A DNA stretch of 64,000 nt from Craspedostauros australis. Lineage: Eukaryota. The notes under the pieces were generated by a model that worked only from the letters and a program-made list of their open reading frames with translations, had not been told where the DNA came from and ran no database searches. This document shows, piece by piece, positions 13,901 through 59,637 of the stretch. Each line of letters starts with the position of its first letter. Positions within the stretch are counted from its first letter, which is position 1. The stretch lies in NCBI GenBank assembly GCA_030167865.1, contig JALAGF010005345.1:1-64000 (forward strand), written 5' to 3'. The position numbers were made by a program, and so were the translations under genes.

Positions 13901-15673
13901 CAAGTGCATCCGAACAAGGCTGGTCTTGGAGGGTTGACTCATGGCGCCTTCCGTGACTGGAGCCGCAACTCCAAGTTCGCGAACGCAGCCCTGTCCAACG
14001 GCTGGGTGCTGCCTGGTGACAGGGTCCAAACTCCCTTTGGTGACGGCAAAGTCATCCGAATCGACTTCCCCAAGTTGGCAGACGGAGAAAACAATGGTCA
14101 TACGAACGGAAATGACATGCCACAAGGTCGTAATGGGTGGGACGCAGCGTCGGAGACATGGGATGTCACCCCTCCCCGAATCGCCGTTGCCTTGAACCAT
14201 GGCACTGGGTACTTCCCATCGAAATCGATCACGTTGAAAGACCACCCCATGTCGCTCTCGGATCCGTTGCTTGTGAAACGGTGGGACCTACTTGTGGAGA
14301 TGGCACAGACCATGGGACCGAGCCTCGACATCGAGGGGATCCAAACCGCTGTGAAAGGACTTAAATCCAGTCTGGGGCCGTCCGATTCAAAAGCAGCCAT
14401 GCCCAAGGTTGATGCCAAGGCTCCTGCTGCAGCAGCTGCTAGTGTTGCGAGTGATGGTGGTGATGCATCACCTTCTGCGGCTGCCAAGATCACTGAAACG
14501 AATGAGAGTAGTATCACCGATGGTGCAGTCGGTCCTCACAGCGACGCCAAGACTGCGGCTGTCACTGCGACGACAGCGACTACTACTACTACTACTACTG
14601 CAGCTATCAAGATGGAGACCGATGATGTCAAGGGTCAACCAACCAAGGACGTGGTAGCAGGCGCAGATGCAGATGCAGATGCGATCAACGGGGAGGAAGA
14701 CAAGTCGGAAGGTCCATTCCGGCATTCCAAGAACATCTACCTGCCATACGGAGCTGGCCTTTTGCCTACGAGAGCCGGAAGAGGCGTGCATCTGGACAAG
14801 ATCAAGATGGAAGAAGTGGAGAAGGCAGTGCAGGATGCTCTGTTCGATGGGGAAGGTGTCCTCGGCACGGTAAGTGTTGCTGTTGCTGATGCTGTCACGA
14901 GTGCATCTGCGCATGATATGCGCGAACTTGCTGTGATCACACTGATAATAGGCTCCATGCATGAGCGCGGCATGATGCGGTGCAAGCAGAGTAAAGTGAG
15001 GGAATATGCACACACACACACGGCTCACGCATCAATCTGAATTCTTCCTGTGGTCGACGTTGACATCAACATCGACATCATGTTGGTGCTGTGACCAACA
15101 ATTGTTGCGATACTTGTGCAGAAATCCAACATGGGAGTGACGGCCGAAATCCGAGAGCTGGAGGACCGCTCTCAGGAGTATGCGACATTGATGGCCGAAG
15201 TATCCCAGCAACGCAACGCTCTGTTCCGTCAACGGCGAATTCGCACGTTGAATGAACGCACCCACGCAGCCACGACGGAACGCGCCGCGCGTATCGAAGG
15301 TTTGGTGGAGGAGATGCGGTCTGACCTGAACAGCTTGAAACGCAGATTGGACGATGAGCTCACAGAGCTGGGAATCTCGCAGGGATCCGTGAATGCCATC
15401 CTCACGAAGCATTACGAGACGAAGCATCCCGACATTTTCAAGGCTCTTGGCACAGCAGCCGCAGTCGTGCAACAAGGAGACAGCAAACGGCAGAAGGTAT
15501 CAGATGCGCCAAACAAGGAGGAAGAGAGCGGTGGCGGCGGTGCTGCCAAGGCCGCCTCGGAAACCACCGATATGGCGGTAGACGCTGACAGCAACACCAA
15601 CAAGAGCAAGAGCGAAGCCGGAACACCAGCAGCGACGGAGGCGACTGCCAAGGCAGTCCAAAGCGCTGCATGA
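10934..15673 (+). CDS. Large hypothetical protein (~1500 aa): ~700-aa disordered A/T/K/E/P/S N-terminus, coiled coils, SH3/KOW-like motif
   Basis: Exons 10934-14869 and 15122-15673 (acg|gtaagt ... gtgcag|aaa). Long open frame; ordered-looking blocks such as FNPPRPPESVGTKKKHRMLRWERRP and PGDRVQTPFGDGKV; no signal peptide. Confidence 0.8.
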
Positions 15674-17124: not shown

Positions 17125-20100
17125 ATGAGCAGCATTCGGAGAGGTAGCAATGATGGCGCTCGCTCCGAGTGGAGTGGCGGCCTCTCCGTCAAGGATAGGA
17201 TTCGTGCCATGAGCAAGACTACAGGCGGGAACACAGAGGATGCTGGAGGCAGCCGTGCCAACCATCCTGCTCCTGTCGACGGTGCTCACGGAAGAAGTCA
17301 GTGTCATAATAATGGTCACGATCAGGAACGCTGCGACAACTACGACGCCCATGACAACGGCGATCATTCGGCAGCCAGCCCCACTGCGACCTACAGCATG
17401 GGACAAGCTGGCGGCCTGCGCACCATCAGCGCTGCCTTGAGCCCTGCCATGCTGCCTCCGCAACCTATGGCACACAAGGAATCTGTCAAGGACTCCGTGA
17501 ACACCGAGATGACGGACGAGATGTCAGATGATGAATCCGCACCTCGGAGAAGCAGCGTTGTGGACATGTGGCGGAAGCGCGAGGAGGCTGCAACTCGAAG
17601 TGGCAGCATCAGCAACAGGGTTGTCCCATCAGGCAATCGCCCACCTGCGCAGTCACGTCAACCCATCATCGTTTCCTCCTCTCCGACCAACACCAACAGC
17701 AACAGCAACAGGAACAACAATGTCAACAACAATGTCAACCACACGGATCATCTAGAAGAAAAGAAAGAGCAGCATGCCGCTGAGGAAATGCATCACAAGT
17801 CGATTCCGGCATCCCCAGCCAGGGAACAGCAACGGCCAGCATCGGCACCGCTGCCGTTCGAGACTGATTACTCCAACGGTCAAGCCGATAATTCTCAACG
17901 AGCCCCAACGACAAGCACTGGATGGGACAGAAGTCAGCATTCGAATCAACACCCGAATCAGCACCCACATCAGCATTCGCATTCATACTCCCAACAAAAC
18001 CAAACGGAACAGGAATCACCACCAGCTGCGCAGCGAAATGATGTCGAGGCGAGAAGCGAGATATCCATGCAATCCGGCACATCAGGCTTCTCACGACGTG
18101 GCACCGTCGCAGATATCTGGACGAAGAGGATTAATAAGAGCAGAGGTGAGACCTCCAATCAGGATTCTCACCATTCGGAACGTCACTCAACCCTCACTCC
18201 AACGCCAAAGCCTGCCATCGGCAGCAACAACAAGCTCCCACCACTGCCAACGTCGGCGCAACACGCAACTCAATCGAGGTCCGCAGCATCACCCGTCGTC
18301 TTCTTCCCAGACGATGGCAACGACCAGTCGGATGCCAACCACAGTGATGCCAATGTTCATGTGAATGCCTACAACAATGGCAACAACAATGGCAACAGCA
18401 ATGCCAACGCACATGGGAGATACAGCCCCGCCCATCATCCAGACGAGTCACAGCCTCAGACTCCCTCCAGGACGAAGGGTCTCACTGCGGCCGATATCGC
18501 GCAGCACACCAAGGTGGACAACATGCGATATGGTTTCCGCAACTACCGATCCAACAGCTTTGGCGCCTTCAAGAGCGATTCCCGCGCTGCCTCACCCATC
18601 ACGTACTATTCGCCAAAGTCGGACGTGGGAGTTTCAGACCGATGGACCAAACGAAGTCCGAGTCCCACCATGCTATCCATGCCGCTTTACCACAACAACA
18701 TGGGTGCTGGTTCCAAGTCATCGATCTTCACGGGTCTGCGATCCATGTCGCCTCGCGTGCAACCACCCAACTTCAAACACGAAACCGTTTCGCAACCGGA
18801 TCAAGACGACCACCTTGTCGCACAAGATCCTGAAACTAGTGAGCAGAGCGGCCAACCGCCGCAGGAACCTGAGAAGCCGGTCGCATCGTCTCCCTTCGGC
18901 AACGTCAAAGCGCAGTGGGAGCAACGCTTCGCGGCCAAAAAGAACACGCCGCCCGTGCGCACCACGCCCAGAAGAGACAGCAGCCTCACACGAAGCTCAC
19001 CGAGGCATGGCGCAACGCCCACGAATCGTTGGAAATCGCGACAGGAGGAGGATGCGCAGGATGTTGCCGAGGATGACATCGACAGGCCGATTCCGAAGGT
19101 GCGGAGACATTTGAGACCCTCCACACCAACGCAGCAGTACCAGCCTCGTGGAAGATCCAACTCCATCAACTTCGATGCACCTATTCCCTACGATGATGTT
19201 GCCGACAGGGATGGCAGTCTGACCCCATCTCAACGTCCCAAGAAGGATCTTGTCCAGATGGGCCAAAAGCACACCACCAGAGCCTACTCTCCCAAGACCT
19301 CCTCATCACCCAGAGCAATTTTTATGAATCCTTCCGTCAACTCCCACATGCATGATCACAATGACAGGGGGTTTGATAGCCACGTGGCCATGCCAAAGCT
19401 TGCGGATCACGAGAGACCTGCCTCGGAAGCTTCGCACGATGCGTCAACGGCGCCAAGCACCACGCCGTCACGAGCAACAATGAAGAAGCAACTTGTCATG
19501 GCCAGGTACCGCCACAGAAAGCGCAATCAGAGCAACAGTGGAGACTCTCCACAAACACCAAACTCGGCGCAGGAGCATCTCATGGCACCTGCAGCTGAAG
19601 CCGATGGGATGTCCCATGGCCAGGATCCCAATGCACCAAGGGCATCGCCAATTGACCCAATCGCTGTGGGACAACAAGCATCGCATCAACATTATCACCA
19701 ACAGCAGCAGCGGCAGTCTTCTCATATGGCCGACCCCATCAACAGCAATCAAGGGCACGAGATCATCTTGGATACGCATGTCGACGAGGTTGTAGCTGTC
19801 AATGGACAGCAGAATCCAATATCCCCCACGGACTCGGAATTCACGCCGTTGAGTGTGTCAGATCCGGAATCCTTTCATCTCCCAGCAGATGGTCAGCAGG
19901 AGCAGAACCCGCTGACTCCGACCAGCATCAACGCGGTCAAGCCGACACCGTATTACCACGCTGTGCAGCAGCAGCAGCCACGGGACGGCGACACCCGGTC
20001 CTTCGTCAGTTCAGGTACGGCATTTTCGGGTGTCTCACAAGGCTCGGCCGGTTCCTCGTCTCTGGCCAACCGCGCGAGAAGCGTACTAGCCGCGCAACGT

Positions 20101-21120
20101 CTCAAGAAGCACAGCCAGTCCGTGAACCAGATTGGGAATGCGCCAGTGGTTACGCCCAAGCCGGTGCCGACGCCCAGCATCCAGCCAAAGCAACCCACCC
20201 CCACAGATGATCTCGGCGATCCACCAATGTTGACGCCATTGCCCGTACACATGCGCACGCAATCCTCTCCTCAAGCAACGACAGGCCAGCGAGGCAGCCC
20301 CTTGCGGCAGTTGAATTCCAGCATTCGTCATGATGCGCCAACGCCATTGATTGGGAGCAGCCGGCGAACTCTTCAGCAGGACACGGCGCAAGGCGCGCCG
20401 CCGCAGCAGCAGCCATCTCATACACGCACCGATGCTGCTGGTGCCACGGCCACGACCACGCAACCACAGGATGCAAGATCAACTGCCCAGCCAGCCGATG
20501 GCTTCCATCAGTCCATGTCTCCCATCGCCAGAGCGCGACAAGCACACTACAGCTTCGATTCGACCGTGACGGGAACAAGTTCCAGGATGCTGTCCACCAT
20601 CGGCAGCAGCGCCACCGAAAGCTTCAGTCCGAAACGTGACGGATCGACGGCTGCCGATTCATCGTTCAGGAGCGGAATCGAGACGCTGGATGATGCCACC
20701 AACACGTTGGTGCCGGATGAATTCGTATCAGAAAGCGCGGCAAATGTCAACGCGTTCCAGTCGGCCTACCAATCGCTCAGCTTGGAGCAGATTGCCAATG
20801 ATTTTCGGGAGGAGGTGGCAGGTTCCGTGGCGCAAGTGCAGGGCCTGGACTTTCACAAGCTGGCCTCCGACTTCAACTTCGGTGTCTCCGCCGCATCTGA
20901 CTCCATCAACAAGCTCGTTGGGACCGAGGTGTTCTCCACCACTAAGCCCAAGACCATCATGCCGAAGAATGCACCTGCCATCGATGAAGGTGTCGCGATC
21001 GAAGTGGAATACATCGAAGAAACGGATGCTGCCAGCCCGCGGCCAAGACGTAAAACGTCTTCACGAAATGGCAGGAGGCGAAGTCGCAGCCGCACTCGGC
21101 GAGCACAGAGCCGTCCGTAA
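17125..21120 (+). CDS. Hypothetical intrinsically disordered protein, 1331 aa, S/P/Q/N/H-rich
   Basis: Uninterrupted 4-kb ORF with accATGa start after an A/C-rich leader. Short helical motifs (SVKDRIRAM, SVVDMWRKRE, TVADIWTKR, NVKAQWEQRF) and an ordered C-terminal block ending VAIEVEYIEE. No recognisable domain. Confidence 0.8.
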   Translation: MSSIRRGSNDGARSEWSGGLSVKDRIRAMSKTTGGNTEDAGGSRANHPAPVDGAHGRSQCHNNGHDQERCDNYDAHDNGDHSAASPTATYSMGQAGGLRTISAALSPAMLPPQPMAHKESVKDSVNTEMTDEMSDDESAPRRSSVVDMWRKREEAATRSGSISNRVVPSGNRPPAQSRQPIIVSSSPTNTNSNSNRNNNVNNNVNHTDHLEEKKEQHAAEEMHHKSIPASPAREQQRPASAPLPFETDYSNGQADNSQRAPTTSTGWDRSQHSNQHPNQHPHQHSHSYSQQNQTEQESPPAAQRNDVEARSEISMQSGTSGFSRRGTVADIWTKRINKSRGETSNQDSHHSERHSTLTPTPKPAIGSNNKLPPLPTSAQHATQSRSAASPVVFFPDDGNDQSDANHSDANVHVNAYNNGNNNGNSNANAHGRYSPAHHPDESQPQTPSRTKGLTAADIAQHTKVDNMRYGFRNYRSNSFGAFKSDSRAASPITYYSPKSDVGVSDRWTKRSPSPTMLSMPLYHNNMGAGSKSSIFTGLRSMSPRVQPPNFKHETVSQPDQDDHLVAQDPETSEQSGQPPQEPEKPVASSPFGNVKAQWEQRFAAKKNTPPVRTTPRRDSSLTRSSPRHGATPTNRWKSRQEEDAQDVAEDDIDRPIPKVRRHLRPSTPTQQYQPRGRSNSINFDAPIPYDDVADRDGSLTPSQRPKKDLVQMGQKHTTRAYSPKTSSSPRAIFMNPSVNSHMHDHNDRGFDSHVAMPKLADHERPASEASHDASTAPSTTPSRATMKKQLVMARYRHRKRNQSNSGDSPQTPNSAQEHLMAPAAEADGMSHGQDPNAPRASPIDPIAVGQQASHQHYHQQQQRQSSHMADPINSNQGHEIILDTHVDEVVAVNGQQNPISPTDSEFTPLSVSDPESFHLPADGQQEQNPLTPTSINAVKPTPYYHAVQQQQPRDGDTRSFVSSGTAFSGVSQGSAGSSSLANRARSVLAAQRLKKHSQSVNQIGNAPVVTPKPVPTPSIQPKQPTPTDDLGDPPMLTPLPVHMRTQSSPQATTGQRGSPLRQLNSSIRHDAPTPLIGSSRRTLQQDTAQGAPPQQQPSHTRTDAAGATATTTQPQDARSTAQPADGFHQSMSPIARARQAHYSFDSTVTGTSSRMLSTIGSSATESFSPKRDGSTAADSSFRSGIETLDDATNTLVPDEFVSESAANVNAFQSAYQSLSLEQIANDFREEVAGSVAQVQGLDFHKLASDFNFGVSAASDSINKLVGTEVFSTTKPKTIMPKNAPAIDEGVAIEVEYIEETDAASPRPRRKTSSRNGRRRSRSRTRRAQSRP

Positions 21121-25917: not shown

Positions 25918-28789
25918 CTAGTCCTGATGAGGTCTTTGCCGTCTTTGGGCGCGTCGCTGTCGTTCCCTGCGCTTCACGGCCCAGCTCAGCATGGCGACCA
26001 GACCAGCCGACGCCCAGATGCTCGACACGAGGAACAGATCGGATGCGCACTTGCCACCGCCGTGCTCCTCGAGGAAGAAGTCGGCATTGCCGTCAGGGAG
26101 ATGTTCGAAACAACCATCGTCCAGCTCCATTGGCCTGGAACAGACGAGGCCACGGACGAGGGGGATCATCTGCGCCGCCTTGTCCCACATCAGGAAGTAC
26201 TTCTGAGTCGGTTTCAGCACCAGCAACCTCAGCGGGTTCAGCAGAGACGATGACACCGCCTCATCCGTGATCTGAACACTGCCCACAATCCCGTGGCACT
26301 TGTTGGCATCACCGAAGAAGCCGCCGACCAATCCCCACGATACGCGAAGCAGCCAAAGAGTCATGACGACCACGACCAGCTCGAACACTCTGCCGCGCAG
26401 ATCCAGACCGCGTGTTTTCTTCATCACTGTCGCAATTCCACCCCCAAGCAGCGCCATGACGTAGAAGGAAGTGGGGATGAGCACGAAAGCCAGGTCGTAC
26501 ATGAGCGGGTCGCGCTTCATCCCAGGGAACAGCAACATCGTAGCAAGGCTGTACACGGCGACGGATGCCCAGAATCGGTGTGGCTTGTAACACACGTGCT
26601 TGTGCACGATGTGCCATGACACATTCTGGCACTGTCGCGAGCAGTAGTAGCTGCGCAGGCATCGCACGCACTTCCATCTCGCACGTTGCCGGCAGAGACT
26701 GCATGCCCAGCGCCGGCGAGAAACGCCCTTCTTCTTGAGCAGACGCCGTGCGCGGCAGTACAGAGCCACGATGGGCGAGATGATGACTGGTGCGATGTAC
26801 TTCAAGCGTTGCTGCCGGACGATCCACGTTCCGATTCGCCACCAGATGTGTGGTTGCCTCAAGGCCAGGAGAACGTGCGGTGGCATTGGCTCCATGCCGT
26901 GGTCGTTGTTCACTACAGCTGGTCTGGCTGATGGGGGCAGAGCGTAGGCGAAACCGCACGTCTCGCAGTTGAGGCCTCCGCGCGCCGCTGGGTGTCTCGA
27001 CCAGCATCGCCACTGCTCCAGGCACAAGTAATGCACGAATGCCATGGAACCAGAGCATTGGCAAGGCGCCAGGAGTGGATTTGCGGATGCGCTGGGATTG
27101 GGGTGGTACCTGGGATGGGGATGCACAGGTCCCCTTTGGAGGATGTTGCTTGTCGGTCCTGCTGCCTTGACGGAATCATCATCATCGAGATTGTCCATGC
27201 CCTCCTCGTTCGAAGCGGTGCCAACAGCATCGCCGTCTTGTTCGTTGGAAGATGATCCGTGTCTGGATGCAGCATTTTGGCCATCGTTGTCATTCTCCAT
27301 CGCTGGTGATGGCTGCTGGTCGTCGCTGTCGTCGTGCAACCCCTCTCTGCATATTCTGCAGAACACTGGCTCCATCTGGTGCGCGGCTGATGATACTGGG
27401 GGAGAGAGGCCGTCGGTGTAGTTGAGCATGAGCTTCATTGCCACGGACGATGGGAATTCGATGCCCGAACGCAAGCAGACGAGCGCTGAGCTGGAGGCCT
27501 CGATCGGATCGACCGCTGGCGCAGTGGCGTTGTCCTGCGGCTCGTCCATGTCATCACGCATCGTATCCACATCCTCACGCTCGAAATCCATCGACTCCAC
27601 GATCGCGGTGCGTTCATCCACCTGCGAAGACGGATCGCTGTTCGTAACATCATCAGTCTGTTGCCGTTGCTGTTGCTGTTGCTGTTCTTGGCCTTCTCGT
27701 GACGGCTGAGTCCTGCCGTCGGCAACGGCGTCATTTTCACGTTCATGTACGTCTTCATTTTGATTGTCAAAGACTCTGTGGATGGCGTCTTCTCGTGGCG
27801 TATCGTTGTCGCTGCCCGTGCGAGGACGTATGTTGTTGGTTGGTACGTCGATGCTTAAATGTTCTGTGCGGTATACAGGAGTGAAGTGTGGTACAGCAGT
27901 AGGGTGCACAAAGTAGTACGGATTTGCAAGAGCGTGATTTAGTATCGACAAGAATACAGCAGCGGAATGGAAAAGAGCAGCGTTGTCATTGGTTGATACT
28001 CGCATGTTGGATGATATCATATGATCCAAGCAATTTGACAGGAGAACAAGGATAGTTCTGCGGAGCCAAGGATAGCATGGCAATGCAAGGTCAAGTACAG
28101 TCGAAGCACGATGCTGCGCTGATTGGCTTTACCAACGCCTCCGCACTGCGGAACCCCACATGGATGAATACTTGCAAGTACGAATGCATGCACGGACGCA
28201 CGGATGCGTGGATAGCGGGTGGAGGAACGATGAAATGGAACGTACCTGGTGACATTGCTCCAATGGAGATCTCCGAAGTCCCGTCCATGACGGAGTAGAG
28301 GTTGCCCTCTCCCAGCCTCCCCAAGGCGATGTAGCCTGCGAATCCTCCGTTGCGGCCGGTCCAGCGCAGGCGGAGCCAGTAGCGGTTGAACGCGAGGCAG
28401 ACGTCATCCACCAGCACAACCTCCGAATGCTTGACGCTGCGCACGGGCACACCCTCCTGCACAGGCGAGCGTCTGCGATGGGTACCTCGCCGTGCGTTCG
28501 CCGCTGCCACCGTCTGCTCATCAGCCGTGTTGCCAGAGAATGACACCGGTTGCGCAGTGACGTTGGGCGCGTCTCTTTGACCATGCTGCGCTTGCATTTG
28601 GTGCCGTTGCTGCTGCTGATTGTGGCGATTGGCAGCGGCGCCATCGTAACCCTGATGTCCACCTTCATTGTTTGCGGCATCTCCGTCATGTTCTGTCGCA
28701 TCAAGATCACATGGAGCTGAGTAAACTTGAATTTCATGACGCCATGGCTCTCTGGATCCTTCGCCTGGTTGGCAAAGATAGACAGGCAT
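25918..28789 (-). CDS. Membrane-anchored RING-CH (MARCH-like) E3 ligase with a MYND zinc finger
   Basis: Exons 28789-28246, 27863-25918 (ccag|gtacgt ... gcacag|aa). RING-CH CRIC...PCQCSGSMAFVHYLCLEQW...CETC; MYND CSLC...CVRCLRSYYCSRQCQNVSWHIVHKHVC; about 4 hydrophobic segments after it. Confidence 0.85.
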
Positions 28790-48742: not shown

Positions 48743-51700
48743 ATGCAAGGTGAAAGCAGCACTAGCAGCAATGCGGATGCAGGCGTTGGTGCCAGAGACC
48801 CTATTCGAATGAACGCCAAGGCCATGTCTGTGGCTGTCACAGAACACTCACATCATCAGCCCAGACGGCACCGCTGTCTGCCAGGTGAAGATGCAAGGAA
48901 TGACAGCGACGACTGCGACCGCGATGCTGACGATGACAATGTCGTGTTCTATCCTGCGCATGCCTCATTTGACGGAGACTCCACTGCGAACTTGCCATTG
49001 GCAACACCGACAAACAGAACCAATGCAAAAGCTGCTGTTGGGCACGTCGACATGATTGATGAGAATGACAATCATTCGGCCCATCGCAACAGACAACAAC
49101 AACAACAACAACAGCAACAACAGGTAAACACATATGCAACCAATGCGATGACTCATCACAGCTTCGACACAATACCATTGGTGCGCTCGAAGAGCTCCAA
49201 CTCCACCGGATGCACAGGTGTGTCGTCATCGATGTCATCTTCGCAGCCGTCGTTTCCATCGCCACTATCACACTTGCGATCTCGTCGATACACAAGTGCA
49301 GGCGCAACGAGAACCACCAGGATCAATACAGCAGCAGCTTCATACCTGCGGCAACCGCATCGACCTCTCTCCAATGCTGCGGATGTGTCTGCGCAACGGA
49401 ATCAAGCCACCACCACTGGATTCGCGACAAATGCGACTCCGGCAACGCCTGTCGAAGGCCATCAACAACACTTTCAGAATCATCAACAACAGCAAAAGCA
49501 GCAACAACAACAACAACTCAATGACGAACCAACCACATGGAAAGACCACGACAGCACTGGCAATACGTCTCTCGATGCCGGAATGGCAACGCTGCGCAGA
49601 TGGATTCGATCTCGGTCACCAGCGCCCAGCAGCTGCAGCAGCATTGAATCACTCACGAGGCAGCATCAGGTCAGTATCAACTCCACCTTCAATACCAACA
49701 ACAACGCGAACAAAGAAAACACCACCAGCATGAACGACAGGACGCCAGATCTGCCACATGCGCAACCGCAGTCGCGGTCTCGATCACAAACAGCAGCAGA
49801 CGCAGAGATAGAAACATCAGGTCCATGGAGCATACCCTCCAGACCTCTTACAATCAAGCAACTGGTCCGAGAGGAACAATGGCAAGTGCAAACGCAAGTG
49901 CAACTGCAACTGCAAGTACGTCCTGATGCACCACAGTCAGACGAGAACAATTTTTCGTCCTTTGTGGATGCCAAGCAGTCGCTCAGCCCCGACAGTTCAG
50001 CATCAAAGCGATCCAATTCTGAAATGGAGGCGGTTCATGCGTTGCACATGCACAGATGCTCACGAACTGCGCATGCACCAACGCACGGCTACGACAGTGC
50101 CAGCAGCAGCCACAACAGCAGCAACAACAGCAATCACGCAGATCGCAACGCCGACAATCTACACGATGAACCCAATGACGGTAACCATGCACTGAGCCCA
50201 CAAGGGTCTATGGATGAAGATTTGGAAGCATTGTTGCACAGACTGAATGATTGCCCCTCAGATTCTTCCGAACCGTTCCGTCGTGACCATCGGACGCGCG
50301 CATTGTCGGAACCAGACGCCGTCCGCATTCGTGATCACCTGTTCCAACGCGCGCTGCGGGCCCCTCGCAGGAACAGCCGTCGCAGACACGGACATACTGC
50401 GTCAACTCATGCCACCAATGCACGCGCTTCCGCATCCATTACATCAGCGTCTTCAATGCCGCCGCCACCGCCGTGTCAGCCGTACTCTTCTTCGTTTGCG
50501 TCTGCGGCAGCTGCTTACATGCCAACATCCATGGCGGCATCGCAGAACCACAGAAGCCGACAACGAAGCCAAAGCGAAACGGTGGGTATGGCGCGAGGGG
50601 TCGATTCTTCGTTCGTCATGTCCAACTCAGCTGCTGTTGCTGCCGGGTCACGATCCACACGACTGTCTGCTTCAGCAATCGAAATGCTGCGTAATCCAAA
50701 CAGTCCACGTCGGCCCAGCGATGCAAGCCAAAGCGCAGCGTCGAGCAGCAACAGACTGCAGCGCATGGGTCACCAGCAGCTACCTGGAAGCGGCTCCAGC
50801 GGACGGGGTGGCGGCGACAGCAACATGAATGGCAACAACAGTAACAACATCACCAATACTACCAACGGGAACAACAACAACAACAACAGCAATGGCGCTG
50901 GTACCGGTCTGGAAAGGAATGGGAGTGCCGAGAACGGAGCCAACTTTGATTCCGAAGATGAGGCAGATCCACACAGAGACGCCCGTGCTCGATGGATCCT
51001 GATCAACCGCCGGTTCCAGATGGTCATCACAGTCGTGGCGCTTCTCTTCAGCCTCATCCTCTTGGCCATACTGGTGTGCTGGGTCATCCTCACCAGCGCC
51101 TACGTCGTCTCCATCGACAAGACATGCGATGTGCCGCTGAAGCCGTACTTTTGGCTCGTCACGTTGCAACTCATCTTGGACGTATTCCGAGTTGACATCA
51201 TGCGGCTGGTCTTCCGCTGGGACACTGGCTCCAACTCCCGCATGCCTTGCCGGGTGATCGTGTACAACGTGGCGTACCTGACGTACGCGCTGCTCGTGCT
51301 TCGGTTGGGCATCAACGCCGTCTTCCGAAGCCCCGACAGCAAGTGCAGGGACACGGCGCCGGAGCTGTACCAAAGCAGCGCCGCCTTTGTCGCACTTGCC
51401 ATGATGGCCTGGGCGACCATCATCCTTGGCTACCTGCTGCCCTTTTGCTTCGTCGCCAGCTTGCTGACGTGGAACGGCTACTCGCCGGCCACGGAGGATC
51501 CACCTGCGACGAATCCATTCGTTGTCTTCACAGGCGCCTCGTCCGGTGCACCACCTGGCTGCATCGACCAACTCAAAACGGTGAAGCTAGGGGATTTTGA
51601 GGCCGGCTATCCACCGGAGTGCTGCATCTGCATGGAGGACTTCAGCGATCGCGATGAGATCATCGAGACCAAATGCAAGCACGTCTTCCACAAGCAGTGC

Positions 51701-52105
51701 TGCCGGGAATGGCTGAAGCAGGCCAGGACGTGCCCTGTCTGTCGCAAGGACATTACCGATAGCCAGACCGGCGGCGAAGAATCAGGAGGCCGGTACCAAG
51801 CCATTTCCAATCACCGCGTTTCGCCCAACATCGCATTCAACGCGACCGGGCGCTCCTTCGAGCATCAGGAACTGCGAGAAGTCGTGAGTCTGCTGCGCAG
51901 GATCAGGCATCCGCGCAACCTCGCCAACCAACGCAACGGGACCACAATGCGACGGCGGTTGTCGGAGACTTCGCAGGCCACCACCGTTGCCACACGAGAA
52001 CGATCCTTGTCTCTCAGCCGCAGCCAGTCCTACCCGTTGGTTCCGCCAAGCCAAGGATCCGATGTGGAGGAAGGCAGACCGCCGCGCGACTACTCTTCCT
52101 CCTGA
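48743..52105 (+). CDS. Multi-pass membrane RING-H2 E3 ubiquitin ligase with a ~750-aa disordered N-terminus
   Basis: Intronless 1120-aa ORF. About 4 TM segments with CDVPLK and CRDTAPELY; RING-H2 CCIC...CKHVFHKQC...W...CPVC. The start codon is uncertain (48743 or 48809). Confidence 0.88.
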   Translation: MQGESSTSSNADAGVGARDPIRMNAKAMSVAVTEHSHHQPRRHRCLPGEDARNDSDDCDRDADDDNVVFYPAHASFDGDSTANLPLATPTNRTNAKAAVGHVDMIDENDNHSAHRNRQQQQQQQQQQVNTYATNAMTHHSFDTIPLVRSKSSNSTGCTGVSSSMSSSQPSFPSPLSHLRSRRYTSAGATRTTRINTAAASYLRQPHRPLSNAADVSAQRNQATTTGFATNATPATPVEGHQQHFQNHQQQQKQQQQQQLNDEPTTWKDHDSTGNTSLDAGMATLRRWIRSRSPAPSSCSSIESLTRQHQVSINSTFNTNNNANKENTTSMNDRTPDLPHAQPQSRSRSQTAADAEIETSGPWSIPSRPLTIKQLVREEQWQVQTQVQLQLQVRPDAPQSDENNFSSFVDAKQSLSPDSSASKRSNSEMEAVHALHMHRCSRTAHAPTHGYDSASSSHNSSNNSNHADRNADNLHDEPNDGNHALSPQGSMDEDLEALLHRLNDCPSDSSEPFRRDHRTRALSEPDAVRIRDHLFQRALRAPRRNSRRRHGHTASTHATNARASASITSASSMPPPPPCQPYSSSFASAAAAYMPTSMAASQNHRSRQRSQSETVGMARGVDSSFVMSNSAAVAAGSRSTRLSASAIEMLRNPNSPRRPSDASQSAASSSNRLQRMGHQQLPGSGSSGRGGGDSNMNGNNSNNITNTTNGNNNNNNSNGAGTGLERNGSAENGANFDSEDEADPHRDARARWILINRRFQMVITVVALLFSLILLAILVCWVILTSAYVVSIDKTCDVPLKPYFWLVTLQLILDVFRVDIMRLVFRWDTGSNSRMPCRVIVYNVAYLTYALLVLRLGINAVFRSPDSKCRDTAPELYQSSAAFVALAMMAWATIILGYLLPFCFVASLLTWNGYSPATEDPPATNPFVVFTGASSGAPPGCIDQLKTVKLGDFEAGYPPECCICMEDFSDRDEIIETKCKHVFHKQCCREWLKQARTCPVCRKDITDSQTGGEESGGRYQAISNHRVSPNIAFNATGRSFEHQELREVVSLLRRIRHPRNLANQRNGTTMRRRLSETSQATTVATRERSLSLSRSQSYPLVPPSQGSDVEEGRPPRDYSSS

Positions 52106-52327
52106 AATCCGGTTTTTGAGAGTCCTCGCACAATGTAGTGCGTACCCACGAGTACGTATAGTATGCCTGTGGAGGGATAGAGTAGAGTATGATACCCGCA
52201 TGTACAAGTAAGCAGAGTACGTGGAGTAGTTCATTTCATTTTTGCATTTTCTATTTACTCTTGGGTGCGCTCGAGGGGAATTTGTGCTGTTGCTTCGCAG
52301 TTGATGATAACACAGGAATTGGACGTC

Positions 52328-54856
52328 TCAAATCAGCCGCGAACGGTTCACTGTGGAGTCGCGGTCCATGGCACGTAACCTCTCGCGTTGCTTTCCGCTC
52401 TCGCTGACGTAGTACCCAACACCAGCAATGAGGATCGCGAAGGACACCAGAATCGAGTAGAGCTCCGCCGAGGCATCCGATGCCATCACGGAATCATCAT
52501 CGGCGATGACGTAGTTGCCATCCAACGAGACGATGAAGTCGATCCACATTATGAAGAAGTCGTAGCTCCCATGGAACAGGACGGAGAAGACGACGATGCG
52601 GTTCAGTGTCATCTTGGGATCCTTCTCCAAATCACGTCCGCAAACACCGATGCTTTGGATGGCGGCGGCGATGGGGTGGATGGGGAACAGGGAACGTGCG
52701 ATGAGAACGATGATTTCGCCAGCGAGCGACCTGTCGCTGTACAGGAAGATGTAGACCAGATTCTCGCAGCAGGCAAAGCCAATGCTGACCGTCACCATGG
52801 CAACGGTGATTGCTGCACCGCGCGATTCCATGCTGCGTTCCTGCTGTGCGCATGGCAGCGTGATGCGTTGTCGGGTGATGCCGGAGGTGAGGTGCTGCAC
52901 GTCTTCCTCATCGGCGTTGCTGTGCATTTCGTTGTAAACATCGATGGATTCCTCGAGATCTCTCGCGGACATGAAGTCGGGATGGTCGCTCGCCATTCGG
53001 AATCCAAAGTACTTGCACAGCTCCTCCACCGTGGCAGCGAGCAGATAGGAGACGACCATAAGGTAGATCGTATAAAAGATTGGATGATCGGTGCCGAAGA
53101 CGCCCAGGAAATCTCTGTAGCTCTGCGCCGTGCGCTGGTCCCATTGCGCACCGAACGGGCCCAAGGTTCCAAATGTGGGAGCAGTGTCCAGAACGTCCTG
53201 AAATCCGTTCTCGGCTTCCTCGTCGATGCCCGATATCGCCATGAGGATGGTCATGAAGAGCCTGATGGACAGACCAAACAAGATCTCGAAGAATACTGCC
53301 AGGGTCGTGGAAAGGAAGAAGCCGCAGAAGAAGAACTTGACGATGGCATCGACTGAGATGTCCTTGGTGTGCCTCCAGTACACGATGGTCAAGATGATCA
53401 GCGATTGTGCTAACGTTGCGACGAGCACGATGAAGTTGGAGATTCCGAAGTAGTGACCGAATCTGGAGGACACCGTGCTCCACGCGAGGGCGACAACGAG
53501 GAAGCAAGCTGTCGATGTGAACATGCCTTTGGAAAGGGAGGAGATGCCATCCAACATCGACACCGGTTCTTGCCCGTCGATATCACCCGCTGTCGCCGAC
53601 TGCGACCCAGCTTCTGATTGCTGCGTTGTAAATCGTGCGGAGATGGATTTGATCATCCGGTTGACTGCGATCTGCACGCCCAGCTGCACTTGACCCTCGC
53701 CATGTCGGGCCTTGAAGATGCTGGGGTAGTACTCCATGAAGGGCTGCATCGTGATGTAGTCGATGCGTCGCTGCGCTGGAGAGATGGTGCGTTCGAGCTC
53801 CCGCCCTTCTTGGGCAAGCGCGCAGATGCCGCAGATTTGGAGGTTCATGCCGCACATTGCAGAGCAGCACATGCCAGACCAACAACGGAAGAGGAAGGAG
53901 CAGATGTTGTTTCTCGCGTGGTTGGTCTCGCTGACGATCTGCGCATCATCGAGGCGCGCGATGTCTGTGACGTAGCACGAACAGAGGGAGTGCGACGTGC
54001 GTATATCCCTCTTCGTTTGACCCATGAGGTATGACGGTTGGTGCTCGTTCGGCTCGTCGATGTCGAAAGAGTCCTCATCCATGCGCTGCTCCAAGTACCC
54101 CGTGGTGATGAGATGATGCTTCATCCACAGCAGATCCCTTCGCACGCCCTGACGCTTCCACGATCCCTTGAAGCATTGGATGACGAAGACCCCGATCAAG
54201 GTGAATACCAACGTCGTGCTGATCATCTGATTGAGAAGCGGATCGCGGATGCGGAAGGCGCAAAAGCCTGCGGCGAGGAACACGCACAGGGGTAAGATGG
54301 TGTGTAACCAGAAGCGACGTGCGCATGATGGCGGTTCCACCCCCGTGACGAGGTACCGGTCCCTGTCGCTCTGGAGCACCCCGCAACAGGCCATGGCGCA
54401 GCAATCCACGCGTTCGGATGCAGGATCCTGGAACATGCCCGAAATGGGTGTCGAGAATCCTCGGTACTTGCTGCTGTTGTTGTTGTTGTTACTGTTGCGT
54501 TGAGCAGAAGCAGCGAAGTCGTGGCCTTCCAAGTAGCCTGCGCCAGGGATGCCACCAGCAGCAGCAGCAGCAGACTGCTGAACATTGCCTGTTGTGGACA
54601 TGGACTGGTAGTTGAGACCTGCATCAACATCCTGGGCTGCAGCAAGGCCATCTTCTCCTGCTTCTCTGCTGGTGTTGGTCGTGGTGGCGGCACCCACCCC
54701 ACCACGAGCAATACCAGTAGCAGTGGCAGAAGCGGTGGGAACATGGTCGAGAGTGGATCTATCTGTGCTGGTAGCCGTAGTATGTGCGCCCACGTTATCA
54801 TCCGTTGGATGTTCTCCACTGTCTTCGCTTGCGTGCAATGGTGATTGCGCTTCCAT
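52328..54856 (-). CDS. PrsW-family intramembrane protease fused to an N-terminal PLAC8-like Cys-rich domain
   Basis: Intronless; first ATG at 54856. PrsW motifs VEELCKY, GFACCEN, HPIAAA, FHGSYDF in a multi-TM region. PLAC8-like FSTPISGMFQD...DCCAMACCG and ICALAQEGREL. Confidence 0.82.
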   Translation of the reverse strand: MEAQSPLHASEDSGEHPTDDNVGAHTTATSTDRSTLDHVPTASATATGIARGGVGAATTTNTSREAGEDGLAAAQDVDAGLNYQSMSTTGNVQQSAAAAAGGIPGAGYLEGHDFAASAQRNSNNNNNSSKYRGFSTPISGMFQDPASERVDCCAMACCGVLQSDRDRYLVTGVEPPSCARRFWLHTILPLCVFLAAGFCAFRIRDPLLNQMISTTLVFTLIGVFVIQCFKGSWKRQGVRRDLLWMKHHLITTGYLEQRMDEDSFDIDEPNEHQPSYLMGQTKRDIRTSHSLCSCYVTDIARLDDAQIVSETNHARNNICSFLFRCWSGMCCSAMCGMNLQICGICALAQEGRELERTISPAQRRIDYITMQPFMEYYPSIFKARHGEGQVQLGVQIAVNRMIKSISARFTTQQSEAGSQSATAGDIDGQEPVSMLDGISSLSKGMFTSTACFLVVALAWSTVSSRFGHYFGISNFIVLVATLAQSLIILTIVYWRHTKDISVDAIVKFFFCGFFLSTTLAVFFEILFGLSIRLFMTILMAISGIDEEAENGFQDVLDTAPTFGTLGPFGAQWDQRTAQSYRDFLGVFGTDHPIFYTIYLMVVSYLLAATVEELCKYFGFRMASDHPDFMSARDLEESIDVYNEMHSNADEEDVQHLTSGITRQRITLPCAQQERSMESRGAAITVAMVTVSIGFACCENLVYIFLYSDRSLAGEIIVLIARSLFPIHPIAAAIQSIGVCGRDLEKDPKMTLNRIVVFSVLFHGSYDFFIMWIDFIVSLDGNYVIADDDSVMASDASAELYSILVSFAILIAGVGYYVSESGKQRERLRAMDRDSTVNRSRLI

Positions 54857-55496: not shown

Positions 55497-56645
55497 ATGT
55501 GCGAACCATCGGACTCCACCCAGATACGCCAATGGCTGTTCGACTTTGATGACCTGCAGCTGTGCAGGGCGCGGGCGAATCGAGTGGCGCGCAAATGGTT
55601 ACGAGCGCAGGCGGAATCAAAGCAAGCAGACGACAAGGGCGCCGTGGTCGTCTCGGCCGTCAAGTTCGCGTGCGAGTATCATGCGCGCAAGGCAGAGTTC
55701 GCCAAGGAAGATGAAGGCGCGCTGGAGAATGCGAAAGGACATCCGTACCTGACGCCGGATGAAGAGTCCCTGCTCGTCAGCTTCTACGTTTCGAAGTTGC
55801 CGAGTCTGGTGGGACCCTTCGCGCAGGTGCCGCGGCTGCGGCGCGAGTCCAAGGTGACGGCGACGGCAGCGCTCATCCTGCGGAGGTTCTACCTTTCCAA
55901 CTCCGTGATGGTGTTCGATCCGAAGACGATCATGGTGGCCGCCGCGTTTCTCGCCACCAAGGTGGAGGACGCCACGACCGACGTGCGGTACCTGGAGGAG
56001 GGTACGAATTTGATGAACGCGCCGGTGCTGTCGTCCGAGATCATTCCAGCCGAGATTCACGTGCTGTCCGGCATCAACTTCGATCTGCTCTGCTTCCATC
56101 CGTACAAGGCGGTGCTGTCGCTGACGGAGGATCTGAGGACGTACCTGAAGTCCGAGAAGGGCAAGATGCTGGTGAGCTTCCCCAACGGCAAGGAGCGCAC
56201 CATCGTGGGGCAGGATCTGAAGCCGATGCACGACGCTGCGCAGCAGATCGTCAACGACGTGATTGTGAGCGATCTGCCCTTGATGTATGCACCGGCGCAG
56301 ATTGGGATGTCCGCATTGATGGTGGCCAACGAGAAGCAGGCCTCGAAGGAGGACGTCCCGCAGATCGATCTGCTGGGGTACCTGATGCAGCGATTTGAGA
56401 AGTCGGACTTGGAGAAGCTGCAGAGCCGGTTGCAGTCGCTGTCGGATATGCTGAAGGGCCTTCCGGAAGGCAAGCACGGTTGCGCCAACCACCACATGGA
56501 TATGAAGCAGCTGAAGTCGATACACAAGAAGCTGAAGAAGGTACGCGTGTGGGGAGTCTCGTCGGACAAAGATAAAGAAAAGAAGAAGAAGAAACGAAAG
56601 GCAGCAGATGATGGCAATGACAGCAAGCGGCAGAAGAAGTCGTAG
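55497..56645 (+). CDS. CCNH: Cyclin H (CAK/TFIIH cyclin)
   Basis: Intronless, 382 aa. STQIRQWLF, LTPDEE, TAALILRRFYLSNSVM, AFLATKVED, NFDLLCFHPY, MYAPAQIG; C-terminal poly-K NLS. Confidence 0.9.
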   Translation: MCEPSDSTQIRQWLFDFDDLQLCRARANRVARKWLRAQAESKQADDKGAVVVSAVKFACEYHARKAEFAKEDEGALENAKGHPYLTPDEESLLVSFYVSKLPSLVGPFAQVPRLRRESKVTATAALILRRFYLSNSVMVFDPKTIMVAAAFLATKVEDATTDVRYLEEGTNLMNAPVLSSEIIPAEIHVLSGINFDLLCFHPYKAVLSLTEDLRTYLKSEKGKMLVSFPNGKERTIVGQDLKPMHDAAQQIVNDVIVSDLPLMYAPAQIGMSALMVANEKQASKEDVPQIDLLGYLMQRFEKSDLEKLQSRLQSLSDMLKGLPEGKHGCANHHMDMKQLKSIHKKLKKVRVWGVSSDKDKEKKKKKRKAADDGNDSKRQKKS

Positions 56646-57744: not shown

Positions 57745-59637
57745 ATGAGGATCATACGCCGCAGAACGGTGCTCGCATCGACGGCGACCGTCATGCTCAT
57801 GACGCCGTCTTCGACCGATGCCTTCCTTGCGCAGTACGCTTCCGTGCGGCTGCCGATGGCCGATCTATCTCCAGGTGCCACAGCAGCGCCCTCCTTTGCG
57901 ACACCGTCGCAGAACGTCATCTGGGGAACGTCGTCGCCGCATCACAGCCTGCTGCGCATGTCGGATGAATTCGATGGCACAGCGACGGAGACAGGAGTTA
58001 CCAACGGAGCAACTACAAATGGCGCTGTGAACGGCGCGATCAATGGTGCATCCAACGGCGCTCCAAATGGTGCTGCGGCTACTGCCACCATCGAGCCATC
58101 AGCACCTGCCACACCGCCCGACTACGAACCTTACATCCCGCGCGAGTTGGAAGACGCCCTGGCGCAACGTGAACAGACCATCTTCCTATACGAAAAGGAG
58201 ATCGAGATGATTCGGAAGAAGCTTGAGATGAAGCAGATGGAATACGAGGAGACGGTGGACACGTGGCGGTCGGAGAAGTCCAGCCTCGTCAACACCATCG
58301 CCGAATTCACCGACATGTTGACGCAGCGCGATGAAGAAACCAAGCGCCGCGCGCAGAATGAGGAGGACTACAAGCAACGCGAGAAGAAGCTCGAAGCGGA
58401 GATCGAGAACCTCACGCAGCAGCTGGAATCCGCCAAGGCCAAGATGCAGCAGGAGACGGGGTCCGTGTCGGAGTTGAAGAAGACCCTGGACGAGACCACG
58501 GATCGGTTGGAATTCGATCAGATGGAGTTCGAAAAGTCGAAGAAACAGCTCGAGAACAAGATCGAGGAAGAGCGCAAAAAACTCAAGAAGTTGGAGTCGC
58601 AGATAGGGGATAACGAGAAGGGGTTCGAGACGACGAGAAAGGAGCTCGTGGCGCGCGTCCAGCAGGAGGAGAAGAAGCTCGCCGCTGCGAAGCAGGAATG
58701 GGCGGAGGCCGAGCGGCAGATCCTGGCGCGGGAGCAAACCTTGCGCACGACCATCGAAGAGAAGGAACGCACCATCGAGGAACGCAACGACGCTTTGAAG
58801 GAAGAGAAGAAGAAGTCATCGCAGACGGCCGCCGACCTCAAGAAGGAGATTCAGGAGCAGAAGGACGAAGTGAGCCAGACCAAGGCCACGCTGCGTGCGG
58901 AGCAAGCCAAGTACGCCGGCATGAAGACCGAATTGGAGGAACTCATCGAGAAGGAGCAGGCCGATCTCGTCAGCCTCCAAGCGGAGATGGTGCGGGAGAA
59001 GGAGCGATCCGCCACGGAACGTGAAACCCTCCAGAAGTCGCTGGACAGCGAAAGCGAGGCCCTGGCGCAGATCCAGACCACCCTGGCGGCCGAACGGGAG
59101 CAATCCAACCAGCAACGCATCGACTACGAAGATGAAATCGTCAAGTTGGTCGACAGCCGCCAGAGGAAGGCACGTCAGATGGGCAGACGATTCGAGAAGA
59201 TCCGCACCGAAATGACAGAACTGTGGCAAGGCGCCAAACGCGATGCACGAGAGCGCGAGCGTCACCTCAACGCGAAGTACGAATCCAAACTGAGCGACTT
59301 CAACCAGCGCGTGATATCGCTGGAGATGCAAGTGTCCGCGTCGACGGCCCAAAACGAGGATCTGTCCCAAAAGGTCGCGGAATTGGACAGCATGAACGTC
59401 AGTCTGCGTTCCGAAATCTCCACCTTGCAATCCACCATCGATGCCAAGGATATCGTGATCCAAGAGAAGACGGCCGTAATTCAACAGAAGACTGCTGTGA
59501 TCGAGAAGTACGAGGGCAGCTACCGTCAGCTCGCACGATTGACGGTCCGTTTGGCAGGCAAGCGCATCCGCGGCGTGGGGTCGCGCATCCGGCGCATCAT
59601 TCGGAACAAGCCCTTGCCGACCGATGAAGAACTGTGA
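57745..59637 (+). CDS. Plastid-targeted long coiled-coil protein of unknown function
   Basis: MRIIRRRTVLASTATVMLMTPSSTDA-FLAQ (signal peptide plus ASAF-like cleavage and S/T/A-rich transit peptide), ~460 aa of E/K/Q heptads, basic amphipathic C-terminal helix. Confidence 0.85.
   Translation: MRIIRRRTVLASTATVMLMTPSSTDAFLAQYASVRLPMADLSPGATAAPSFATPSQNVIWGTSSPHHSLLRMSDEFDGTATETGVTNGATTNGAVNGAINGASNGAPNGAAATATIEPSAPATPPDYEPYIPRELEDALAQREQTIFLYEKEIEMIRKKLEMKQMEYEETVDTWRSEKSSLVNTIAEFTDMLTQRDEETKRRAQNEEDYKQREKKLEAEIENLTQQLESAKAKMQQETGSVSELKKTLDETTDRLEFDQMEFEKSKKQLENKIEEERKKLKKLESQIGDNEKGFETTRKELVARVQQEEKKLAAAKQEWAEAERQILAREQTLRTTIEEKERTIEERNDALKEEKKKSSQTAADLKKEIQEQKDEVSQTKATLRAEQAKYAGMKTELEELIEKEQADLVSLQAEMVREKERSATERETLQKSLDSESEALAQIQTTLAAEREQSNQQRIDYEDEIVKLVDSRQRKARQMGRRFEKIRTEMTELWQGAKRDARERERHLNAKYESKLSDFNQRVISLEMQVSASTAQNEDLSQKVAELDSMNVSLRSEISTLQSTIDAKDIVIQEKTAVIQQKTAVIEKYEGSYRQLARLTVRLAGKRIRGVGSRIRRIIRNKPLPTDEEL

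Follow-up and report, generated by a model that had tools for sequence, protein, structure and literature searches.

The window considered here is a stretch of 64,000 nucleotides from the genome of Craspedostauros australis (contig JALAGF010005345.1). On its minus strand, at 52328-54856, lies an intronless open reading frame (ORF), P0001, coding for a protein of 842 amino acids in which a PLAC8-like module is followed by a PrsW-type protease domain, with ten predicted transmembrane (TM) helices in total. This fusion is a real, conserved, multi-copy diatom architecture composed of two known kinds of domain. We propose that the protein could be an active post-Golgi intramembrane glutamic protease of the PrsW/M82 type, acting in diatom endomembranes and carrying a PLAC8-derived cytosolic cap, a proposal to which we give an even chance of being right.

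PrsW of Bacillus (MEROPS family M82) is the site-1 protease of RsiW. No substrate of a eukaryotic PrsW-type protein is given in the literature examined, nor is it settled what PLAC8 domains do at the molecular level. Present across diatoms in several copies, and with its catalytic residues intact, the fusion gives genetics a way into both questions. The protein is also a candidate for the enzyme behind the intramembrane proteolysis that has been proposed for diatoms under iron stress. The architecture is new and its parts are known; databases already label such proteins "PrsW family". Neither the fusion of PrsW with PLAC8, nor its spread, nor the tail motifs described below were found discussed in a literature search that misses most subscription journals. 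A paper retrieved for PrsW and diatoms was unrelated, those for PLAC8 and diatoms look unrelated by title, and none of the 20 papers shown in a search for PrsW in apicomplexa contains the word PrsW.

The PrsW-type core and the PLAC8-like module

The original prediction had described an apparently intact PrsW-type protease, and the description holds. PrsW-protease (PF13367) is the sole Pfam family recognized in the ORF (E 6.6e-8; score 32.8 bits, cut-off 23.5), and it is matched by 40/40 aligned members at E up to 1. The NCBIfam PrsW equivalog NF033739 scores 29.2 bits, far below its cut-off of 225; the protein is therefore a member of the PrsW family, not an orthologue of Bacillus PrsW.

As in Bacillus PrsW, a multi-TM core carries four motifs in the same order (all features of the protein lie on the minus strand). 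These are EELCK, an EExxK motif with E611, E612 and K615 (53012-53026); FACCEN, an FxxxEN motif with F694, E698 and N699 (52760-52777); the PrsW-type extra histidine H727 within PxHP (52673-52687); and HGSYD, an HxxxD motif with H762 and D766 (52559-52573). Three of them, and the cysteine motifs treated below, had been placed correctly to within a base or two, and H727 had been missed. FxxxEN is named as a PrsW motif in the original prediction. The diatom protein differs from Bacillus PrsW by long acidic loops, three additional TM helices, the PLAC8-like N-terminal module and a eukaryotic host.

The alignment confirmed that the catalytic residues correspond to those of the PrsW family. It has 148 rows, 146 of them with letters at all nine checked positions. 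E611, E612, E698, H727 and H762 are all intact in 143 of these 146 rows, and D766 in 146/146. Taken singly, conservation is 146/148 for E611, 148/148 for E612 and 145/148 for K615, then 143/148 for F694, 147/148 for E698 and 138/148 for N699. H727 is kept in 144 of the 146 lettered rows (144/148 overall), and H762 and D766 are each found in 146/148, the other two rows being gaps. The 143/146 intact rows show that the motif set is more than chance. The active site of PrsW has been described as EExxK and HxxxD with an extra histidine on a helix between them (PMC4602095), and H727 would by its position be this histidine. An extra conserved glutamate has also been noted in PrsW-type proteins (PMC4634964).

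Residues 473-819 (52400-53440) form a putative 7-TM PrsW/APH-1-like core. In the ESM Atlas, aa 440-835 group with PrsW clusters at 0.92-0.93 (0.93 for the core), the diatom cluster being nearest and the fungal clusters, of Ascomycota and Basidiomycota, ranking next. The Atlas also lists a diatom cluster of 105 members, of which 90% are annotated with PrsW and 10% with PLAC8. In VIA-align, where the caution level for helical bundles is about Z 13, the top match was chain 4 of 6w6l (TMCO1 translocon; Z 11.6, rmsd 4.2, 220 aligned), which we take to be TMEM147. APH-1B (8oqz_C; Z 10.4, rmsd 5.3, 224 aligned) was rank 2 of 48161. Both matches extend over the last seven helices, and ABC-type TM domains come next. 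The two proteins are the closest structures to the core, but they are non-catalytic and share about 8% identity with it. APH-1, of gamma-secretase, has been described as a remote homolog of PrsW with the same ABC likeness (PMC6588880). Foldseek gave no match at E <=0.001 against the PDB and viral models. Rce1 was absent among the best 50 VIA-align rows, which do not exclude it. Sequence searches of the PDB returned nothing useful, and they found no solved PLAC8 relative.

The claim of a PLAC8-like N-terminal module stands on profile-profile and ESM Atlas evidence and finds no support from Pfam. PLAC8 (PF04749) did not match P0001, either as whole protein or in fragments, and was absent from the top families listed for two sets of homologs, one of 40 and one of 65. 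Among 46 N-domain sequences, PF04749 was found weakly in two (best E 0.34) and TIGR01571 in three (E 0.53 or worse). A PLAC8 profile was built from 77 stand-alone domain sequences, 73 from PF04749 database proteins and four from the same genome; the set includes one near-duplicate, and its named members are diatoms. By hhalign, the N-module aligns in order with these stand-alone PLAC8s over 141 columns (P 6.5e-4). Its halves also align separately, each at its own end of the profile (N-half P 5e-4; C-half, aa 314-372, P 2e-4), against P 0.05 for the reversed module and 0.16 and 0.19 for two C-terminal controls. Block shuffles matched the real score in 0/25 cases for the whole module, 1/25 for the N-half and 0/25 for the C-half. 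With aa 246-326 masked, hhalign gave probability 92.6 and P 4.6e-7, the score of 46.0 comparing with 17.4 +/- 2.8 for 25 shuffles (maximum 23.3). The four PLAC8s of the same genome alone gave P 0.0025. The reverse hmmsearch was slightly above decoys: the whole N profile exceeded 5 bits in 6/73 sequences against 0/74, the C-motif did so in 14 against 7, and the N-motif in 0 against 0. As a lead only, the top three ESM Atlas clusters for aa 128-390 are PLAC8 (0.86). A model of the N-domain (pLDDT 86.5, pTM 0.83) matched only generic helical hairpins in a fold search (Z <=7.3). We read the module as PLAC8-derived, while not a strict member of the PLAC8 family.

What the module shares with PLAC8/cornifelin/PCR/CNR proteins (PF04749, TIGR01571) is an ordered series of opener, Cys motif, LxxG, TM hairpin, RxxxR and C-x-x-C...QxxR. 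The N-half, aa 130-245 (54122-54469), contains the F/W-S-T opener, CCxxxCCG, LxxG, the hairpin and RxxxR. In the N-terminal Cys motif (54380-54406), CG[VIC] stands in the place of canonical CPC: the proline position is Gly in 141/148 rows, the last Cys occurs in only 23/148, and the pattern CC/CLxxxxCPC is not found. The RxxxR motif, with R235 and R239, lies at 54137-54157, R239 being present in 148/148 rows. The C-motif CGxCAxAQExRE[LIV] (53795-53833) has G343, Q349 and E350 each in 148/148 rows and agrees with CCxxCAL + QxxRELK (C345 143/148, Q349 148/148, R352 147/148), the last K being E here.

The PLAC8 domain had been considered split by two TM helices and an acidic loop, but the helices do not split it. 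The TM1-TM2 hairpin (aa 184-229, 54170-54307) belongs to the domain, because stand-alone diatom PLAC8s have a hairpin between the same motifs. An interruption nevertheless exists, and the alignment indicates that its true form is a family-specific insert of about 80 residues (aa 246-326, 53879-54121) with the acidic loop and the motif GQT...HxxCxCYxxD (53963-54022), in which H289 is conserved in 132/148, C294 in 133/148, Y295 in 142/148 and D298 in 143/148 rows. The module thus departs from PLAC8 proteins in having CG[VIC] for CPC and the HxxCxCYxxD insert, in scoring below the Pfam cut-off and in not having been found alone.

The stand-alone PLAC8s of the genome (L009-L013) share a short N-terminal segment, V.AP..L..G..F, ahead of the domain, and their domains mostly end in QxxRHT, not QxxRELK. 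One PLAC8 fragment, identical in score and length, occurs on three contigs (L014, L015 and L016 on C4022, C4023 and C6490), which suggests redundant contigs or a recent duplication.

Gene integrity and distribution of the fusion

The ORF had been reported as single and intronless, and its 842 codons are indeed free of internal stops, with an in-frame stop 47 codons upstream. A Stauroneis transcriptome product of 778 aa, marked "complete", aligns with it nearly end to end at 60% identity. Metagenome loci were taken from the best 80 of 107 matches (79 used), a selection biased towards full-length loci. Both domains are held by 69 of the 79, within a single stop-free frame in 52 and spread over two or three frames in 17; the ten single-domain loci all lie close to a contig end. 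A search of sequencing runs found no RNA run carrying the gene, and no domain-bridging RNA record for it was seen; one run of guessed type covers the gene region only at 52230-52761. Two contigs of run X1 match 52000-52761 exactly, and the point where they meet (52224/52230) falls between the stops of the two converging genes. This junction would fit two transcripts ending there, the type of the run being only guessed.

Searching with aa 130-842 returned 169 proteins, most of the best 120 being full length, and in a HMMER scan 588 of 1.84 billion representatives matched, of which the best 150 were considered. Most homolog records carry no species name, and non-diatom members are therefore possible; named records represent 13 taxa, all of them diatoms, both centric and pennate. 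They are Nitzschia inconspicua, Nitzschia sp. Nitz4, Cylindrotheca, Mayamaea, Epithemia, Seminavis, Stauroneis, Pseudo-nitzschia australis, Helicotheca, Corethron, Proboscia, "Odonte" and "Cosci", the last two labels being read as Odontella and Coscinodiscus. This distribution agrees with the earlier assignment of the gene to a eukaryotic alga, by its relatives a diatom. In prokaryotic genomes, 73 pattern matches were obtained and none was confirmed; the patterns are diatom-specific, so this result does not extend to distant bacterial PrsW. One weak match (E 5e-3) came from a plasmid search.

The genome (65.9 Mb) contains four PF13367 genes, all with the N-module. The three other paralogs all keep the catalytic motifs, and two of them have a GT-AG intron in an identical codon position. 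A quick unrooted tree was computed for 87 C-terminal regions with no outgroup; it places the window gene as the sister of Stauroneis (support 100), with the paralogs in separate deep clades. Among 253 homologs, 29 have more than 200 residues before PrsW and lack one PLAC8 motif, the C-motif being kept in 29/29. An N-domain profile search gave 57 matches (119-573 aa), none with PF04749 and none a stand-alone N-module. The 54 matches examined either extend to TM3/PrsW or end shortly beyond the module, and from these end positions we infer that apparent stand-alone modules are truncated gene calls or first exons. One paralog (L017:2776-6696, minus strand, contig C3958) has an Asn/Asp-rich acidic repeat of about 290 residues by eye between its hairpin helices. 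The repeat is predicted to be non-cytosolic, and a similar subfamily includes L096 and L098.

Other eukaryotic PF13367 proteins, in Malassezia, apicomplexans and Aspergillus, keep the catalytic residues too (PMC4634964, PMC3482391), those of Malassezia and apicomplexans being of unknown role (PMC4634964). The available parts of these articles mention no PLAC8 fusion for them; the diatom form is multi-copy and occurs in centrics and pennates. Fusions of PrsW with sensor domains in bacteria and with ceratoplatanin in Aspergillus have been described (PMC3482391). In the available parts of PMC5874806, PMC7508674 and bioRxiv 10.1101/403675, nothing is specific to the family.

Topology, proposed function and alternatives

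AlphaFold models aa 126-842 as one 10-TM unit (pLDDT 87.9, pTM 0.90). Family-averaged hydropathy has 11 peaks, of which ten are read as TM helices; the remaining one, at aa 329-347, is Cys-rich with helices broken in the model, and may dip into the membrane. TM3 (53465-53530), defined by hydropathy and AlphaFold, is a linker helix between the modules, and the linker at aa 387-435 varies among relatives and is modelled with low confidence. A cytosolic position of both termini and all Cys motifs is predicted from the Lys/Arg bias, which is seen before TM1 and TM7 and after TM2, TM8 and TM10.

When the two modules were folded as separate chains, the score was 0.49, while the best of three controls reached 0.00. 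The runs had at least 59% of contacts in common, and partner pLDDT did not fall below 49; one run of the three gave 0.03. The mark used is reached by 51/78 solved complexes and 2/108 mismatches. Scores of 0.60 or less include only 5 of the 78 solved complexes, yet all 4 mismatches that passed, and a pass as low as 0.49 is oftener wrong than right unless packing is likely beforehand. Such prior likelihood is suggested by the single-chain pTM, and the result lends weak support to direct packing of the two modules.

The N-tail (aa 1-127, 54476-54856) is of low complexity and has no signal-peptide-like hydrophobic stretch, hydropathy over 12 residues peaking at -0.53 within the first 40 aa. Proteins from the aa 130-842 search that were present in the alignment were used for tail counts. 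A YxxPhi-type motif at Y83-M86 (54599-54610; family consensus NYxSF) has counterparts, as Yxx[FMLIV], in 76/93 otherwise variable N-tails, against a shuffle mean of 16.9 (maximum 26). The C-terminus ends in SxLI (52331-52348), and [DE]xxxL[LIV] is found in 38/105 C-tails against a shuffle mean of 1.1 (maximum 6). YxxPhi and acidic-dileucine-type motifs are adaptor-binding signals for endosomes and vacuoles, and their conservation in the tails hints at one of these locations.

In the mechanism that we propose, the PLAC8-derived module would serve as an immobile cap, anchored in the membrane and held by structural zinc, S-acylation or both. Such a cap would position the enzyme and either let substrate in or recruit it; it would be no dedicated cadmium/zinc sensor. 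Tail motifs would route the protein via adaptor complexes, most likely to the endosome or vacuole, where the 7-TM core may cut membrane-tethered proteins in or near a TM segment, for release or turnover. PLAC8 itself has been placed at lysosomes or the membrane, with S-palmitoylation predicted (PMC9170153).

Several points weigh against this proposal. The structural Z scores of 10-12 are below the caution level of about 13, and APH-1 shows that the fold can work without being a protease. As for PLAC8 ancestry, the mask on the insert was chosen only after the alignment was seen, and hmmsearch of the family with the PLAC8 profile did no better than reversed decoys (more than 5 bits in 4/253 against 10/252). 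The K+R bias leaves TM3 and TM4 ambiguous. The tail sequences are related, so the motif counts are not independent, and the C-tail of the window copy has N where an acidic residue is expected.

The original prediction saw here a metal- or redox-sensing module of regulated intramembrane proteolysis (RIP), in which cap Cys/His would bind metal or oxidise and so activate the protease, freeing a membrane-tethered regulator. Eleven cap cysteines (C152, C153, C157, C292, C294, C319, C330, C331, C335, C342 and C345) are 84-99% conserved, the insert adds HxxCxC, and bacterial fusions of PrsW with sensor domains have been read as signalling peptidases (PMC3482391). In Phaeodactylum, RIP has been proposed for a TM-anchored transcription factor that is up in low iron (PMC5156380); diatom RIP has also been proposed for an S2P protease (PMC5124317). 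We nevertheless consider sensing unlikely. In a review of PCR proteins that gives the CCxxCAL/QxxRELK motif, CPC was ranked as the main determinant of cadmium resistance, for which QxxRELK was dispensable (PMC12467093). Here it is QxxR that is invariant, while CPC is replaced, which weakens the idea of a metal sensor. The conserved Cys/His, with cysteines adjacent to the membrane, would fit structural zinc or lipidation by S-acylation equally well. No "PrsW" or "PF13367" row occurs in six supplement files of PMC5156380, possibly through filtering, and the RIP passages available from PMC5156380 and PMC5124317 do not name the PrsW-PLAC8 family. A more specific version, in which a PrsW of the endosome or vacuole with a Cys/His sensor cap reads trace-metal or redox state and frees membrane-tethered regulators (the low-iron TM transcription factor, for example), seems somewhat less likely still. 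Metal-sensing RIP, if true, would mean a eukaryotic PrsW signalling pathway with the PLAC8 domain as a protease regulator.

It is similarly improbable that the protein is non-proteolytic, serving as an APH-1/TMEM147-like scaffold or in a solute or ion pathway in which the PLAC8-like part has a PCR/MCA-like transport role. This would accord with the best structural matches, which are non-catalytic proteins and ABC-type TM domains, with the description of PCR proteins as cation transporters (PMC12467093) and with Phaeodactylum Phatr3_J48315, annotated as a BCCT transporter with PLAC8. Yet EExxK, E, H and HxxxD are near-invariant across deep paralog clades, whereas APH-1 has QExxR (PMC6588880), and no solved PrsW was among the structures compared, so that APH-1 is merely the nearest relative listed. 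Phatr3_J48315 (PMC5156380 supplement file 3, row 1105) would be, if its gene model is right, another diatom membrane protein to which PLAC8 has been added.

Self-processing, by which the PrsW domain would cut off and release its own PLAC8-like module, is hard to credit. It has been proposed for PrsW-toxin and ceratoplatanin-PrsW fusions (PMC3482391), and the variable, poorly modelled linker would offer a place for it; but the N-module has its own TM hairpin, the model forms one unit, no stand-alone form appeared among the N-domain matches, and the linker shows no conserved cut site. An artefact is refuted in practice, whether a fusion of two genes created by the assembly or the reading frame or contamination from a bacterium, the unseen bridging RNA record of the window gene being outweighed by the single-frame metagenome loci, the complete Stauroneis product, eukaryotic neighbours common to related loci, the two paralogs with a GT-AG intron and the lack of any confirmed match to the diatom-specific patterns in prokaryotic genomes.

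Neighbouring genes and other ORFs of the window

The fusion gene is flanked by eukaryotic genes, namely those for a cyclin, a TM RING-H2 ligase, a CCT subunit and BUB1/Mad3. The cyclin ORF (55497-56645, plus strand), H-like by our reading, is head-to-head with the fusion gene, and the ORF of the three-TM RING-H2 ligase (48743-52105, plus strand) is tail-to-tail with it. A cyclin neighbour is common to related loci L021, L023 and L040, and a RING neighbour to L020 and L021; this recurrence is likely plain microsynteny.

ORF 57745-59637 (plus strand), with a weak bZIP match, was considered as a tethered substrate and rejected, as it codes for a coiled-coil protein without a TM segment; the bZIP match is probably spurious. 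The 630-aa product has a signal-peptide-like N-terminus followed by an A-F motif, a possible sign of plastid targeting.

Elsewhere in the window, ORF 2933-4093 (plus strand) joins in one frame a parvulin-type PPIase domain and a UPF0004 (MiaB-type N-terminal) domain, and ORF 25918-28020 (minus strand) has a RING-variant and a MYND finger. Two ORFs of more than 1300 codons (10934-15040 and 17125-21120, plus strand) are strongly A-skewed and match nothing in Pfam at E 0.001.

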